Sequence record: OP778609
Strand: one strand, 5' to 3'
Source: Escherichia phage A73
DNA: 64,000 nt
Below, in pieces: positions 30,537 to 54,379 of the stretch. A model generated the notes under the pieces. The model saw nothing but the letters and a program-made list of their open reading frames with translations. It searched no databases and was not told where the DNA came from. Made by a program: the position numbers and the translations under genes. The first letter of the stretch is position 1; each line of letters begins with the position of its first letter.

Positions 30537-30883
30537 TTTACCTCCATCATAAATACTTTAACTTTTCGTACCTCTAATCTTACTTTATTAGAGCCTTGAA
30601 GTCTATTTCTTTTTTCAATTGCGTCATTAATGTCGCCATAGAAGTAGTGATCCTTACCTATTGTTGGTATTCCATTGCCGCCTTGCATAGCCAGTGTATA
30701 CATTTCTTTTCCACCTTGCAACCCTTTTGATACTTTTTCTTCAAAATATTTATTGAATTGGGTTGGTGAAGTGTCAATTTCTACATCATCTTCCCATCCC
30801 ATAACTTTATCCCAAAAACGGTCAATCTTGTCAAGAACTTTGTTACTAATCTTTTTAATCTTCTTCAACATAATCTTCCCCAT
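30533..30883 (-). CDS. hypothetical protein
   Basis: 116-aa ORF. Confidence 0.45.
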   Translation of the reverse strand: MGKIMLKKIKKISNKVLDKIDRFWDKVMGWEDDVEIDTSPTQFNKYFEEKVSKGLQGGKEMYTLAMQGGNGIPTIGKDHYFYGDINDAIEKRNRLQGSNKVRLEVRKVKVFMMEVK

Positions 30884-31343
30884 TATTTATTTGGATACCG
30901 AAACGATTTTCATTAGTGGAAAAGAAACCATTTTCCATGCGGCGAATCTCTTCTTTCATCACTTCCTGCATCGTTAATTTAAGGATTTCTTTGTTTAATT
31001 TTGGCTTAACTTCACGGAGCTTGTCAAGAAGTTTTTCCATTTCTTCTTTTACTTTTTCTTCCTCATTTTCTACCTCTAATTGGTCCATTGCATCTTTACA
31101 AACACAGCAATGGCCCACAACTCTTAAAATATGATTTTGTATAGGTAATGCTTTTCTTCCACAATACCCACAAACAATAGACCCACCGGAGGACCGGGCA
31201 TCTATCGTCAATGTAGGCTTGGCCCCTTCTGCTTGAGAATGCCAAGTCTTTTTACCCTGGTAATCATACATAAAGAATTCGTAGGATCTTTCATCAACGT
31301 GGTCTTCGAGCATATGTAAAGTTCGTGTATTGAAATGTTTCAT
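30855..31343 (-). CDS. hypothetical zinc-finger protein
   Basis: 162 aa; CGYCGRK ... HCCVCK Cys cluster; Glu/Lys-rich coiled-coil-like C-terminus; first gene of the leftward block. Confidence 0.5.
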   Translation of the reverse strand: MKHFNTRTLHMLEDHVDERSYEFFMYDYQGKKTWHSQAEGAKPTLTIDARSSGGSIVCGYCGRKALPIQNHILRVVGHCCVCKDAMDQLEVENEEEKVKEEMEKLLDKLREVKPKLNKEILKLTMQEVMKEEIRRMENGFFSTNENRFGIQINNGEDYVEED

Positions 31344-31380
31344 TTTTAACTCCTCGTCGTTTGTATGTGCTAACTATACG

Positions 31381-31394
31381 AGAACTTGAGGGGA
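31381..31394. promoter_or_regulatory. GAGAACTTGAGGGG motif in divergent promoter region
   Basis: Same motif as the direct repeats at 40066-40240; lies between divergent gene starts at 31343 and 31464. Confidence 0.4.
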
Positions 31395-31404
31395 AGATCA
31401 ATAC

Positions 31405-38305: not shown

Positions 38306-38620
38306 ATGATTATTGATGAAAGAACACAAGCAGTTATTGACAAGACTTTCAGTGTACGTAAAAGTATTGTTGCAGACATTAGTCTTGAGCGTATAACCGA
38401 AGAGGGTATCGATACTTCTGTAAACTACCCATTGGTGGAAGAAGACTTCTTACGTAAAATTATGAAGCAAAGTTTTACCGATCATGTGCAGGTAGAAACT
38501 AACGAAGAGATGTGGTTAGTCTTTAAACTATCTGCCGATACTGATCACGAACAAGAATTCAATGCGGCATTGGCATGGATTCTTAAATACTGTAATGACA
38601 ATGATCTGGAGGTGATGTAA
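38306..38620 (+). CDS. hypothetical protein
   Basis: 104-aa ORF. Confidence 0.5.
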   Translation: MIIDERTQAVIDKTFSVRKSIVADISLERITEEGIDTSVNYPLVEEDFLRKIMKQSFTDHVQVETNEEMWLVFKLSADTDHEQEFNAALAWILKYCNDNDLEVM

Positions 38621-38847
38621 TGCACAAGCTTCCAAAGAACTTTCGATTCTATCGTGATCTGAAATTAAAGTCTGTACTGTTTGTCGAGAATTTAGAGTTA
38701 GAGGAGTTTTATGGTTTTGAATGGTACAAAGGGGATATGGGAGAGATGAACTTAGAGAATGTTCTCAAATTTTGGGGCAATGATGATGGGGAAGGATACA
38801 GCCCCACACCAAAACACGAGCTTTCCCTTGTTGAGATTAGACAGTAA
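38620..38847 (+). CDS. hypothetical protein
   Basis: 75-aa ORF; ATGA overlap. Confidence 0.45.
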   Translation: MHKLPKNFRFYRDLKLKSVLFVENLELEEFYGFEWYKGDMGEMNLENVLKFWGNDDGEGYSPTPKHELSLVEIRQ

Positions 38848-38952
38848 CAAAAGAAGGGGCCTAAACAGGCCCCTATAAGCATAAACAAGCACAAGACGAT
38901 AAATGACCTTACCAAAGATAAAAGGTCCTCACAAACGCATACAGGAGCTTAC

Positions 38953-39771
38953 ATGGCCTATCGTAAATTTGACCCACTAATCATTTATGAAGTTGTCCCA
39001 ATGAGTGTCTCCAATCCTCATGGTTTGCAATCACCTACTCCACTTGACCATAAGACAATGATCAGGAATGCAGAGTACACCTTAAGAGATCTTGAGAACG
39101 AAGAGATTGAAAGTGCTGTGCATGGATTGAAAGACCTGATCCGTGAACTTGATACGGATGATTCTGTTCAAGAATATATTGAAAAGTCAGAGGCGCTAAT
39201 CACGAAGTTTCATGAGTACCGCACTAAGGTATCGCGTATTCTTGATGAAGCTTTTGATCCTTCATCAAAAGACCCGATAAATGATGACAAGGCAATAGCC
39301 TTACTCAGCCAAATAGCTGACGCTACTGACAGCATGGACCCTGGTTTTGTAAGGGCTGATCATACCTGTGTAGATCAGTTTCCTTTAGCCTATCTTAAAT
39401 CCAAAAAAGCATTTGGTAGTCTGGCTTTTGTCTGGGAGTATGAGAAAGATTCCCTTACTCGTTACATCAATCGGGTAGGTAAGAAAGATACTTCAGTTAC
39501 GTTAAATATCTTTTGTGATGGTTCCTTGATGGTCCATAACAACTGGACAAAAGAGAGCATCCTCTTTGGTAAAGAAAGAGATCAGAAATTTAAACTGGTA
39601 AACTATATCCGTTTCGCAACAGAGGATAGTAAAATGGGTAAGTCATTTAAAGAGGAGGACTTTAAAACTTTCTTTGAGGATTGGCTTTCCCCAACAGAAG
39701 AAGAGATCCAACTCTTCAAGGCTGTAAATGGGGATGTTTCATTTGACCTGTACACACTCTTTAACGAGTGA
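38953..39771 (+). CDS. hypothetical protein
   Basis: 272 aa; RBS CAGGAG. Confidence 0.55.
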   Translation: MAYRKFDPLIIYEVVPMSVSNPHGLQSPTPLDHKTMIRNAEYTLRDLENEEIESAVHGLKDLIRELDTDDSVQEYIEKSEALITKFHEYRTKVSRILDEAFDPSSKDPINDDKAIALLSQIADATDSMDPGFVRADHTCVDQFPLAYLKSKKAFGSLAFVWEYEKDSLTRYINRVGKKDTSVTLNIFCDGSLMVHNNWTKESILFGKERDQKFKLVNYIRFATEDSKMGKSFKEEDFKTFFEDWLSPTEEEIQLFKAVNGDVSFDLYTLFNE

Positions 39772-39800
39772 TATTTGTTTGCTAAAACAAATTCAGATTT

Positions 39801-39890
39801 CAGATTCAAAATCTATTTGAGATATTTCCCTGTGATATTTGTTTCATGGGGAATTTTCAGATTTCAATTTGAAATTCTATTTGAGATAAA
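39801..39890. repeat. two copies of a roughly 33-bp AT-rich element containing palindromes
   Basis: TTCAGATTTCAGATTCAAAATCTATTTGAGATA and TTCAGATTTCAATTTGAAATTCTATTTGAGATA; the second contains the perfect palindrome ATTTCAATTTGAAAT. Confidence 0.6.
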
Positions 39891-40065
39891 TTTAAGACTC
39901 TTGCCACCGTGTTACATCCATACTGTTTCATTCCTACATACCCCGCACCACTAGAACAACTAAGCTGATGCCTCGCTTACAGACACATCCTCCAGATTCA
40001 ATACGTTACTGTTCCAGTGTACATACGACACAAAGCAAACATACGACACCAGTGACCAAAATAAT

Positions 40066-40240
40066 TTGAGAACTTGAGGGGTTTTTCATTTTTTAGATCG
40101 TAACCTGAAAGTTGTGAACGAGAACTTGAGAGGTTTTTCGATAGAGAAATTAGGAACTTGAGAGGTTTTTCATTTTTAAGTTTGCATTTGAAATTGAGAA
40201 CTTGAGCTACAGGCCAGATACTTGAGGGGTTTTTCAAATT
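40066..40240 (+). repeat. iteron-like direct repeats (four to five copies of AACTTGAGRGGTTTTTC)
   Basis: Copies near 40068, 40120, 40153 and 40221, partial copy near 40196; one further copy near 31381. Confidence 0.65.
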
Positions 40241-40599
40241 TCAGTTTCATTTCAAAATTTAAAAATTTTTTATATGCACAAAAATATAGGGGTTGTCAAG
40301 GTCTTTGATAAGAAATTTTTCAGGGGGTGAGAATTATTCTCATTTTCAGAATAGCAGGCAGGGGTGGTGATTGCTTCGTGAAACCGTCCTCATCACCATG
40401 AATACATAATATCACCATTCTTGATCCGAAAGCAAGAACATTTTAAAAATATTTTTCGGTAAATTTTGGGCGAGCTACCGGCGATCCACCTTACAACCTG
40501 GCGGCGATGCCTGGTATGTTAGCCCCGCCTTTACGCCGTGGGGATGGCGATTGTTTTCCTATGCAGGTAGTATGGCCCCTGGCGGGGCCGTTGTCAACA

Positions 40600-40884
40600 T
40601 TATTTTTTATTTTCTTGCCAGGAAAGAACGCCTAACCAAAAATGCACGTTGCCCCGAGCGTCCTGCGGTATCTTGCTTTCTTTACCGCCACCACACGCCC
40701 AAAGATAACCATCGGTAAACGTATCAAGGTAGTCCATATCTTCCACCTTTCGATCCGCCAGGTTAAGGATAGTATTAACGTCTAAGCCTGTTGCGCTTGC
40801 TAACTGGTAGACCGTGCCGCCTTGCCAGCCTAACGAGTGCATAAGATGCAAAGTAGTAGTAGTAGCAGTAGTGATGGTAGTCAT
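40600..40884 (-). CDS. hypothetical protein (isolated antisense ORF in a locally GC-rich segment)
   Basis: 94-aa ORF; RBS AAGGG; surrounding 500 bp visibly more GC-rich than flanking sequence. Confidence 0.35.
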   Translation of the reverse strand: MTTITTATTTTLHLMHSLGWQGGTVYQLASATGLDVNTILNLADRKVEDMDYLDTFTDGYLWACGGGKESKIPQDARGNVHFWLGVLSWQENKK

Positions 40885-40998
40885 GGTGTCGCCCTTTCTT
40901 CTGTTGTTGTGCGCCCTGGTTGGCGCGGTAAAAAGACTATAAATGATCTTCCTTTATATGGCAAGGAAAAAGAAAATTAAAAAAGATTGAAAATAATG

Positions 40999-41027
40999 TT
41001 GACGTGGTGAATCTGGTAGCGTAGTAT
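40999..41027 (+). promoter_or_regulatory. sigma70-like promoter (first of the early cluster)
   Basis: TTGACG-N17-TAGTAT followed by a CATCTCATCG leader. Confidence 0.55.
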
Positions 41028-41084
41028 TCATCTCATCGAACGGCGACATGCCAACAAGTAAACAAATAAAAGGGCAACAACAAA

Positions 41085-41270
41085 ATGAATAAAAGAATTA
41101 CAAACGTAAATCCTGGCGAACGTTTCCAACATGAGGGGCATTTGCACACTGTAGTAAGCAACAAAGAGCATACTGTAAGAGTAAATAGAAATATCTTGCA
41201 ACTTCGCGATCGTTTTGGTATCGTACAGACTTACACTTTCGAAGCAAATAAAACAGTTAAAACTTTCTGA
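41085..41270 (+). CDS. hypothetical early protein
   Basis: 61-aa ORF downstream of a promoter. Confidence 0.45.
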   Translation: MNKRITNVNPGERFQHEGHLHTVVSNKEHTVRVNRNILQLRDRFGIVQTYTFEANKTVKTF

Positions 41271-41281
41271 GGATTTTTAAA

Positions 41282-41617
41282 ATGGCACTAGTCACTAAGT
41301 ATTTCATTGAAGGCCAGCAAGCGGCGCAACAAGGTTACAGCCGTGTTACTCGTTATAAGAAAGAAGAAAACAAGATTGAATTTTTCAAGGGTTACGATAG
41401 TGTAAACCGTGATGCAATGGTCCTACGCTTCGAATCCGATCCAGTGGGCAAGCCTGTTACCTCTTACCAGGCATCACCGCAGATTGTTTATGTTGGTACT
41501 GTTAAAGAATGTAACGACAAGTTAATCACTTTGAAGCAGGCCGATCGTGCGGGTTACTTTGTTGTTTACACTGCTGACGGTAAGCCTTACCAGTACGAAA
41601 GCAAATATTTTAAATAA
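41282..41617 (+). CDS. hypothetical early protein
   Basis: 111 aa; RBS GAGGA. Confidence 0.5.
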   Translation: MALVTKYFIEGQQAAQQGYSRVTRYKKEENKIEFFKGYDSVNRDAMVLRFESDPVGKPVTSYQASPQIVYVGTVKECNDKLITLKQADRAGYFVVYTADGKPYQYESKYFK

Positions 41618-41707
41618 AAAGTATTGACAGAAAGAAAGAAGTAAATTAAATTATACCACGTAACGCCGCAATCGTGCGGCAATAAAAACTGATAGGAATT
41701 GAACAAA

Positions 41708-41920
41708 ATGGCTAAAATCATCATTAAAAAATCCCGTGTATCTTCTGTTGCTCGCGTCGAAATGGTAAACACTATGCCAGGTTACCGGACTCGCGAGGAA
41801 GCCCGAAGCGTTGCAAAACAGATTAAAGCCCGTGGCTTAACTGTAAGTGCACCGACCAAAACACAAGAAGGATGGAAGGTATCTATTAAATCCGGTACAC
41901 TGTCAATCAATAAACACTAA
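41708..41920 (+). CDS. hypothetical early protein
   Basis: 70 aa from the ATG (track start is an upstream TTG at 41699); RBS AGGAA; basic protein. Confidence 0.45.
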   Translation: MAKIIIKKSRVSSVARVEMVNTMPGYRTREEARSVAKQIKARGLTVSAPTKTQEGWKVSIKSGTLSINKH

Positions 41921-41983
41921 TAGCCAAAACATTAACGGGGCAACTTTGCCCCTCATTAAATAACATTATCCAGGAGTATTAAC

Positions 41984-42142
41984 ATGACTAGCCAAAACAC
42001 TAACATTGAAAAAATCAACATTACTAAAGAGCGTAAAGCATGGAATGAAACATTAAATCTCAAAGGTAAGAAGCTAAATAAAACTAAACGCGATCGCAGT
42101 ACAAAGCGGGCCTTTTGTGAATTTACAGCGGATCAAGAATGA
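41984..42142 (+). CDS. hypothetical small basic protein
   Basis: 52-aa ORF absent from the track; preceded by GGGGCAACTTTGCCCC hairpin and RBS CAGGAG. Confidence 0.4.
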   Translation: MTSQNTNIEKINITKERKAWNETLNLKGKKLNKTKRDRSTKRAFCEFTADQE

Positions 42143-42438
42143 TGATTAAAGTTATTGCACTTACTACTTTATTGTGTATACCATTTTTGGCGCACGGTAC
42201 TAAGTTTTACGGTGCTAACTTGATAGATTGTAAAGCTCATATGCTGGACCATGAAACAGGCAACAAATTTGTTAAGCCTTTCCAGATCAATCCAGCGGCA
42301 TTTAGTGACGGTGTTTTGTATCAGGAAGGTAAAGCCAGTACGCTGATAATCCATTACGATCCAGCGACAAAGAAAGGTAGCTTATCAATCCAGATTGAAG
42401 GCGCGGAAGAGTTTTCAGGTAAAATAATCTGCAATTAA
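42139..42438 (+). CDS. secreted small protein
   Basis: 99 aa; N-terminal signal peptide (ALTTLLCIPFLAHG). Confidence 0.5.
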   Translation: MMIKVIALTTLLCIPFLAHGTKFYGANLIDCKAHMLDHETGNKFVKPFQINPAAFSDGVLYQEGKASTLIIHYDPATKKGSLSIQIEGAEEFSGKIICN

Positions 42439-42444
42439 TATGTT

Positions 42445-42476
42445 AAGGCCCGCCATTGTGCGGGCCTTTCTTTTAT
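42445..42476 (+). terminator. rho-independent terminator
   Basis: GGCCCGCCATTGTGCGGGCC hairpin plus TTTCTTTTAT. Confidence 0.7.
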
Positions 42477-42498
42477 GAAAATAATTTTGAAAATGTTG

Positions 42499-42526
42499 TT
42501 GACAGCACCGATTAAAAGCGTATAAT
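42499..42526 (+). promoter_or_regulatory. sigma70-like promoter with leader hairpin and no downstream ORF
   Basis: TTGACA-N16-TATAAT; leader hairpin CGGGGAACCAAACAAGTAACTCCCCG near 42541-42566; no ORF before the next promoter. Confidence 0.55.
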
Positions 42527-53887: not shown

Positions 53888-54379
53888 TCAACCAGGGGCC
53901 GCAATAGTGGCCCTTGTCATATCCATCGGCGTGACTCTCCCAACTCTATTAATCCCTTCCCCATTTGGATCATCATAACTTACCTCATCTAATCATTAAT
54001 CTAATCCCCTTTGGAATCTCTCCCCCACAAATCTAAACTAATCTGATAGCTTACCATAACATAATCCACAAAGAAAGAACTATTTTGCCCACAATGAAAG
54101 GCAGTTTTAAAGAGATACCATTGCCAGAGTATGGAGGTGGCGCGACCGTAGGGAGCGACACTATAAAACGAGTATACCCCTCCTACCGCTATGCGGTCAT
54201 CGGTGATAACCGATATCGTTACACGCTATCTGTTCTCTTCGTTTCCTCGTTTTATAGTGTCTATATGTAGTAATCTTTTATTCTTTGTCAATACATTATC
54301 GAAGATAATATTGAATTATTTAATGCTTTGTTATTCATATAAAGTGAATAGCTAGTCAATAGGAAGGCCGTTAGTGTGA

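Follow-up and report, generated by a model that had tools for sequence, protein, structure and literature searches.

Direct repeats in a non-coding region of phage A73

We analyzed an array of short direct repeats in a stretch of 64,000 nucleotides (nt) from Escherichia phage A73 (sequence record OP778609), hereafter the window. The window comes from a Septuagintavirus-type member of the Vequintavirinae, the rV5-like myoviruses. Across 25 kb it shares 98.5% identity with phage W70, and its identity to phages A5-4, A7_1, UPEC06 and LTH01 is 94-96%. A minus-strand block of genes at 2.2-31.3 kb, with those for DNA polymerase and primase/helicase among them, ends at a divergent junction (31.34-31.46 kb). 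The plus-strand block to the right of this junction encodes an HD hydrolase, an ATPase, a VWA protein and others, the last being a gene for 272 amino acids (aa) that ends at 39771. It is followed by non-coding DNA from 39772 to 40599. An earlier reading of the same DNA made without database searches, hereafter the sequence-only reading, had described a 1.3-kb intergenic region here; this was too long, since the minus-strand frame at 40600-40884 inside it is a real gene of 94 aa (PHROG 19316, E = 7.5e-49). Dozens of small plus-strand genes lie to the right of this gene, up to about 53.6 kb.

The non-coding stretch contains 4.5 copies of a 16-20-nt repeat inside 168 bp, all on the plus strand. 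We refer to the repeat as Box A; its consensus here is ACTTGAGRGG followed by a T-tract (ACTTGAGRGG-TTTTTC). The sequence ACTTGAGRGGTTTTTC is found in four exact copies that start at 40072, 40124, 40156 and 40220. Copy 1 (GAGAACTTGAGGGGTTTTTC, 40068-40087), copy 3 (AGGAACTTGAGAGGTTTTTC, 40152-40171) and copy 5 (AGATACTTGAGGGGTTTTTC, 40216-40235) begin three canonical units, the 48-nt units starting at 40072, 40156 and 40220. Copy 2 (GAGAACTTGAGAGGTTTTTC, 40120-40139) is an extra, lineage-specific copy within unit 1. The fourth copy (GAGAACTTGAG, 40196-40206), within which AACTTGAG is matched at 40199, is truncated and lacks the GG-TTTTTC half; it is a lineage-specific addition as well and is invariant in the relatives. 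Copy 1 is invariant in five relatives except at the R position. From start to start the copies in the window are 52, 32, 44 and 20 bp apart, roughly multiples of 10.5; the spacings in Erwinia phage Hena1 (76 and 69 bp) and Cronobacter phage CR3 (78 and 63 bp) are out of helical phase.

None of 100 dinucleotide shuffles reached the observed repeat counts, and the direct repeats pointed out by the sequence-only reading, the truncated one at 40196 included, are therefore real. A scan of the complete 137-kb genome of W70 found the 14-mer solely at the homologous places; as its chance expectation in 137 kb is 0.0014 exact matches on base composition, the motif is enriched genome-wide. When six genomes were compared, the repeats were essentially invariant and the spacers varied, with all four bases present at one spacer position. 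Inside the repeats 4 of 91 columns were variable, compared with 11 of 87 outside them (p = 0.06), and the degenerate R position accounted for two of the four changes inside repeats. Directly to the right of the array is the AT-rich tract that had also been noticed earlier (40236-40292, 81% A+T), which holds minus-strand promoter-like sequences.

Several known signals were considered for the repeats and rejected. The TTGAGR of Box A resembles a -35 hexamer, but there is no conserved -10 hexamer at 16-18 bp that would make each repeat a sigma-70 promoter. Sigma-32-like (unit 3 of Hena1 only) and sigma-E-like (GGAACTT, copy 3 only) resemblances, seen by eye, are absent from the other copies. The consensus sequences of IHF and DnaA match the repeats poorly.

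A remote copy in the promoter of a replication-gene operon

A further copy of Box A, GAGAACTTGAGGGG, is located on the plus strand at 31380-31393. The sequence-only reading had reported this copy at 31381 and about 25 bp upstream of a -35 element. The copy is present and starts at 31380, but its position relative to the promoter is different: on the plus strand the copy ends 11 bp before a -35 hexamer and, as the more telling feature, it fills the spacer of a minus-strand promoter. This leftward sigma-70-type promoter (31373-31401), which like all promoters in this study was called as a consensus match, consists of the -35 hexamer TTGATC (31401-31396), a 17-bp spacer and the -10 hexamer TATAGT (31378-31373). 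The Box A copy covers promoter positions -27 to -14, an operator position. The promoter precedes the leftward operon that reaches the replication genes and has 30855-31343 as its first gene. The remote copy and both hexamers are kept in five relatives (W70, UPEC06, LTH01, A5-4 and A7_1) with variation only at the R positions, the identity of the locus in A5-4 and A7_1 being 100% and 99.5%.

CR3 has a different Box A and the same layout. Its Box A core, GTCTCGATCG, is present in four copies in 149 kb, three of them in the array. The fourth, at 69047-69056, is in the 17-bp spacer of the homologous promoter, between TTGATT (69065-69060) and TATAGT (69042-69037), in the same orientation. By our arithmetic, the chance of a given 10-mer occurring in that spacer is about 8/4^10 = 8e-6. 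The homologous promoter of Hena1 reads TTGCTT-16-TATAGT. Between the window and CR3, array and operator thus co-vary, and this implies a trans-acting, sequence-specific DNA-binding protein. We regard two lineages with different Box A sequences in the same array-plus-operator layout as strong evidence that Box A would be recognized at the DNA level by one factor.

The product of the first gene of the operon (30855-31343, minus strand) is acidic, with a four-cysteine motif (CxxC...CCxC) followed by a charged helical tail, and has no Pfam match. The protein is 39% identical between the window phage and CR3 (CR3 68477-69004); no counterpart was detected in Hena1 or in the 46 kb examined of phage KNP2, two phages without the operator. 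It was discarded as a universal binder of the array because it is absent from Hena1, and it showed no match to DksA/TraR.

The control region in other lineages

An 18-mer of the region served both as search pattern (CTACCGGCGATC[N]ACCTT) and as coordinate anchor (window 40475-40492). The search returned 20 viral and 66 metagenomic stretches, with the true element in 44 loci when the window and the phi92-like phage PHB05 are counted in. A syntenic non-coding region of 0.8-1.3 kb is found in CR3, Hena1 and PHB05, and this control region occurs in Vequintavirinae, Stephanstirmvirinae and metagenomic relatives. The repeats kept in the five close relatives belong to an array that is syntenic in wider lineages. 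The order of the elements is constant in lineages with enough upstream sequence: AT-rich GTGATATTTG elements, a variable stretch, three 65-85-bp units, one to five palindromes resembling Fur boxes, and a structured element. In about 15 lineages the array keeps a fixed distance from the anchor, and its units start some 440/365/300 or 405/330/260 bp upstream of it.

Every unit opens with Box A. Its sequence is the same in the three units of one genome and differs from lineage to lineage. The window, Hena1 and locus L023 have the ACTTGAGRGG-TTTTTC class. A GG(G)TWCTCGATCG-(N)TTTTC class is seen in CR3 (for example GGTCTCGATCG), PVP-SE1, KNP2, Av-05 and others, and L083, L031, L021 and PHB05 have other versions. 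The window's Box A motif is confined in Hena1 to the syntenic region. In the relatives, GAAAAAATTTTT tracts are present in every unit and the units hold short inverted repeats. The class of Box A does not track overall relatedness: the window shares its Box A with Hena1, yet its proteins are much closer to those of CR3 (the VWA protein, for instance, is 62% identical to that of CR3 versus 40% to that of Hena1). Homogenization within genomes together with divergence between lineages is the pattern that sites should show when the trans-acting factor reading them co-evolves. That phages of Escherichia coli carry different Box A classes argues against a host factor.

No similarity to the region was found in the plasmids and E. 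coli genomes searched, and an origin from a plasmid or the host was rejected. The paper that describes the clade does not mention the control region, and the literature searched yielded no description of regulation or of a replication origin in rV5-like or phi92-like phages.

Other elements of the control region

The left end of the region is occupied by a 64-bp tandem duplication (39768-39831 and 39832-39895), the two copies of which agree at 45 of 64 positions. Both contain GTGATATTTGTTT together with an AT-rich element, TTCAGATTTCA...CTATTTGAGATA. These two 33-nt AT-rich elements (39792-39824 and 39856-39888) had been read as a duplicated 33-bp element with a perfect palindrome. There are indeed two AT-rich copies, but they are 88% identical and part of the 64-bp duplication, and the perfect palindrome, ATTTCAATTTGAAAT at 39861-39875, is found only in the second. 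The duplication shares 75% identity with non-coding sequence in the Cronobacter phages CR3, CR8 and PBES02, and it may represent a second family of binding sites. With its GTGATATTTG and TTCAGATTTCA...TTTGAGAT motifs (L012 2974-3094), the duplication overlaps the stop codon of the 272-aa gene.

A second palindrome, GAGAATTATTCTC, is located at 40329-40341; both palindromes are where they had been reported. It lies within TGAGAATTATTCTCA (40328-40342), a Fur-box-like palindrome of the 7-1-7 type. This is the local single copy of AATGAGAATCATTCTCATT, of which the relatives have one to five copies, with four to five in tandem in CR3 and PHB05 (L014 2763-2876; L012 3490-3608). The Fur box consensus of Enterobacteria is GATAATGATAATCATTATC, with the 7-1-7 motif TGATAATnATTATCA. 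TGAGAATTATTCTCA agrees with 13 of the 14 specified positions of this motif, and L022 and L030 contain an exact 7-1-7 box, TGATAATCATTATCA. The spacer of TTGAAT-18-CAGAAT, a modest plus-strand promoter-like sequence with a matrix score of about 9, holds the element in most relatives; in the window CAGAAT is at 40347-40352 and the -35 hexamer is degenerate. The exact motif in L022 and L030 and the location in a promoter spacer in the relatives resemble Fur boxes. Unlike Fur boxes, most phage copies have a symmetric T-to-G / A-to-C change, and the phi92-like phages have up to five copies in tandem. The Fur-like sequence and its spacer position hint at possible control of an early phage promoter by the iron status of the host.

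Two conserved promoters are directed leftward on the minus strand, P_L1 (TTGCTT-18-TATTAT, 40406-40435) and P_L2 (TTGACA-17-CATACT, 40569-40597). P_L1, which has no gene downstream, scored at least 9 in 28 of 36 distinct loci versus 3 of 36 on the plus strand. P_L2 scored at least 11 in 34 of the 36 versus 1 on the plus strand, and that of L026 is the perfect consensus TTGACA-17-TATAAT. Both fire into non-coding DNA, and neither has a gene to express; they face the palindrome and the array and oppose the plus-strand genes on either side.

Between P_L1 and P_L2 is a structured element of about 95 nt (40463-40560), made up of the 18-mer, a covarying hairpin and two short stems that resemble a pseudoknot. 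The anchor 18-mer, CTACCGGCGATCCACCTT (40475-40492), is unchanged in 18 of 19 aligned sequences. In these 19 diverse sequences, 89.5% of cells pair versus 33-51% with slid partners. Compensatory changes are seen in eight pairs of the element, among them five of the seven pairs of the hairpin, and none of 500 shuffles reached the covariation score. The second stem pairs with the loop of the third, which results in the pseudoknot-like topology. Wobble evidence for the transcribed strand is balanced. Covariation is the sole support for the structure, as minimum free energy z-scores of -0.5 to +0.95 provided no thermodynamic support. Rfam gave nothing at gathering score in the whole window and nothing relevant at E <= 1 in 38500-42500. 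The element is distributed over Vequintavirinae, Stephanstirmvirinae and metagenomes, and is also present in Aeromonas phages without the array. It is a candidate for a new phage small RNA or leader. A link to the mapped origin of phage ICP1 was dropped because the contigs of about 120 kb with the structured element are Aeromonas phages, not ICP1.

Box A as putative operator or iteron sites

We lean towards the interpretation that the repeats are operator- or iteron-type sites for a sequence-specific DNA-binding protein, most likely one encoded by the phage. A regulator binding site had been suggested by the sequence-only reading, and the suggestion has gained support from the confinement of the motif to these loci, the constancy of the repeats next to varying spacers, the uniformity within genomes and the spacer position in both the window and CR3. 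The 4.5 copies are this lineage's version of the conserved three-unit array, which heads the right-terminal block of early genes. The C1 operators of phage P1, a temperate phage whose lysogeny is maintained by C1, are asymmetric 17-bp sites dispersed over the genome. Box A is likewise asymmetric and likewise found singly in a promoter and clustered, at distant genome positions. In contrast to P1, the present phage is virulent; no similarity in sequence is seen, and the Box A protein is putative.

A number of observations weigh against this interpretation. Box A lacks the dyad symmetry that is usual for sites of dimeric repressors. The copies in the array overlap no recognizable promoters, so any function of the array is putative. 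The close relatives are about 92% identical, which limits the statistical power of conservation among them. The operator link is restricted to certain lineages, as judged from their promoters: Hena1 and KNP2 have arrays and no Box A in the corresponding promoter or junction (46 kb scanned for KNP2), and a third lineage carrying Box A in the spacer of this promoter was not found, the sequence of L076 stopping short of the promoter. The co-variation of array and operator is accordingly that of two lineages, the window and CR3. Moreover, Pfam and PHROG searches and protein comparisons between the window, Hena1 and CR3 identified no cognate regulator. Pfam matched no helix-turn-helix family among 140 open reading frames (ORFs) of the window, and Pfam and PHROGs found no Rep or helix-turn-helix family and no initiator among the flanking genes. 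Gp130 of Hena1 (L017 32005-32289) has an HTH_36 winged-helix domain and is annotated as a replication initiation protein; it has no homologue in the window phage.

KNP2 has a small protein annotated as a 'replication initiation protein' (L113 21483-21761) in the block upstream of the array, as does Hena1. The pattern is reversed between two pairs of phages: Hena1 and KNP2 have the initiation protein without a promoter Box A, and the window and CR3 show the opposite. Other proteins were tried as binders and rejected. The 272-aa neighbor is acidic, and its pattern of similarity does not track the class of Box A. Proteins of 405, 245 and 122 aa are shared with Hena1 and not with CR3; none of them shows a DNA-binding signature, and the family of the 405-aa protein is widespread.

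We propose that a protein bound in the spacer, at -27 to -14, would keep RNA polymerase out and thereby repress the replication-gene operon or set its timing. On the AT-rich DNA of the control region, the clustered sites could assemble a multi-protein complex, which might be a high-affinity reservoir, a roadblock to transcription from P_L1 and P_L2 or the mark of an origin. The Box A protein may thus mark a replication origin in addition to its proposed role as a regulator.

The present analysis provides a first map of the cis elements in a control region shared by two subfamilies, and a regulatory link in which one factor would bind both the array and an operator in the promoter of the replication operon. 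Phages of the rV5-like and phi92-like groups are isolated widely for use in therapy and biocontrol, and the map shows where not to cut or load inserts in their genomes. The identity of the factor would reveal how expression of the replication-gene operon is timed, and phage engineering could gain an origin or an orthogonal pair of operator and repressor from it.

Alternative explanations

It is possible, if rather unlikely, that the region is a replication origin, an explanation that overlaps with that of operator sites. Box A would then be the iterons of an initiator that autoregulates the replication operon, the 81% A+T tract would be the unwinding element, and the leftward promoters would activate or prime replication, as transcriptional activation or RNA priming from promoters does at the origins of T7 and T4. 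Iteron origins with autoregulated initiators include lambda ori with the O protein and P1 oriR with RepA and the incA control array, and initiators such as P1 RepA have a repeat copy in the promoter of their own operon. In the present phages, too, direct repeats of 16-20 bp in the same orientation adjoin an AT-rich tract, a further copy is in the promoter of an operon of replication genes, and the repeat sequence co-evolves with an inferred cognate protein. Unlike iteron origins, the array is neither inside nor adjacent to a rep gene and no initiator gene was found, either among the flanking genes or among the 140 ORFs of the window. The units are 65-85 bp apart instead of about 22 bp and are not helically phased in Hena1 and CR3. 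The T7 primary origin offers another comparison; it consists of the tandem promoters 1.1A and 1.1B and an AT-rich region, directly followed by gene 1.1. Here, the conserved tandem promoters P_L2 and P_L1 point into AT-rich non-coding DNA. The region lies in the terminal 7-15% of a genome with short terminal repeats, and the relatives have short direct terminal repeats and T7-type packaging. Genes of a T7-like replisome (primase-helicase and Pol A) are annotated in W70 and rV5. To the right of the control region, 1.4 kb away, the fourth gene encodes a 52-aa protein (41984-42142, plus strand) of the Pfam family Phage_1_1, that is T7 gene 1.1 (E = 8e-9, above the gathering score). Unlike those of T7, the promoters are of the host sigma-70 type and oppose the flanking genes; T7 for its part is not known to have a repeat array or co-varying operator, and an origin of the T7 type is not known to need iterons. 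GC skew is of no help to an origin either, as it shifts only at 31 kb, where the direction of transcription flips. The authors of the rV5 study likewise found that it follows transcription. No replication data for this group of phages were found in the literature searched.

Returning to Box A as DNA-level sites, the remote copies also bear on whether the repeats could instead function in RNA, as modules of a leftward non-coding transcript, for example a protein sponge, made from P_L1 and P_L2 or from an AT-rich promoter beside the array. Such a transcript would fit the conserved leftward promoters without a downstream gene and the short inverted repeats in the units of the relatives. We nevertheless find it improbable, since the remote copies of the window and CR3 are in a promoter spacer, upstream of the start site and thus in a DNA-level context, and since the promoter nearest to the array is indistinguishable from AT-rich background; covariation inside the units was neither looked for nor seen. 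Control of DNA entry is, in our judgment, slightly less probable still. By this account the region would be an injection stop signal like that of T5, at the inner boundary of a terminal segment that enters first. It borders small early genes and, in Hena1, is 10.6 kb (7% of the genome) from the annotated right end; the T5 signal is similarly about 8% of the genome from an end and beside early genes. Vequintavirinae and T5-like phages are both highly sensitive to daunorubicin, which was found to act early in infection with a T5-like phage. However, there is no report of two-step entry in these myoviruses. The T5 signal is in a 10-kb terminal repeat and has paired DnaA boxes, whereas the terminal repeats of this group are 459-519 bp and located elsewhere, and DnaA-box-like strings, looked for by eye and not by a formal scan, are only partial (TTTTTCAAA, 8 of 9). 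The repeats of T5 are not known to recur in a promoter spacer, and a stop signal leaves the operator copy in the promoter 8.7 kb away unexplained. We give a similarly slim chance to a combined scheme built on analogy, in which the right-terminal 10-14 kb with the small early genes would enter first, a complex on Box A would pause entry, P_L2 and P_L1 would let the host RNA polymerase pull in the rest, and the Fur-like operator and the structured RNA would act as a gate. The A1-A3 promoters of T7 are where the host RNA polymerase pulls that genome in.

Two further explanations were given hardly any weight. A genome terminus or packaging signal (a terminal repeat or pac site) might be suspected, since phages with short terminal repeats often carry repeats near their ends and the GenBank record of LTH01 opens at window 40475/40476. 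Position 1 of that record (PP430345.1) is exactly the first base of the anchor 18-mer. There is no terminal repeat at either end of the record, and the opening is probably an arbitrary cut of a circular assembly. The determined ends of phages Gotham and KPP-1 and the annotated ends of Hena1, with direct terminal repeats of 459, 514 and 519 bp, respectively, are in another non-coding region, a convergent one at the distal end of the block of small genes. The end-proximal genes of Gotham match the window at 51.4-53.0 kb, and a 34-nt match to KPP-1 is at 54137-54170. This synteny and the repeat-free ends of the LTH01 record led us to reject a terminus or pac site as highly improbable. Least credible of all is a coding function, in which the repeats would be part of a 79-aa minus-strand ORF (39998-40237). 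Five of six genomes keep this ORF open, and in W70, A5-4, A7_1 and LTH01 it is listed as a hypothetical protein. However, its variable columns divide 9:8:10 among the three codon positions, it starts with TTG and is truncated in UPEC06, and CR3 has no equivalent ORF. Given this lack of a coding signature, it is probably a mis-annotation over the repeats.

Small genes and the convergent region of the window

The window at about 53.6-56.3 kb is a sparsely coding, convergent region, which by synteny with Gotham, KPP-1 and Hena1 should hold a direct terminal repeat of about 0.5 kb and the physical ends of the genome. The Pfam scan of the 140 small ORFs detected an Acb2/Tad1 hairpin domain, an anti-defence sponge (E = 1.5e-16). 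It also detected three proteins of the FRD2 family, a phage Tudor domain and a weak match to a family of phage late-transcription coactivators.

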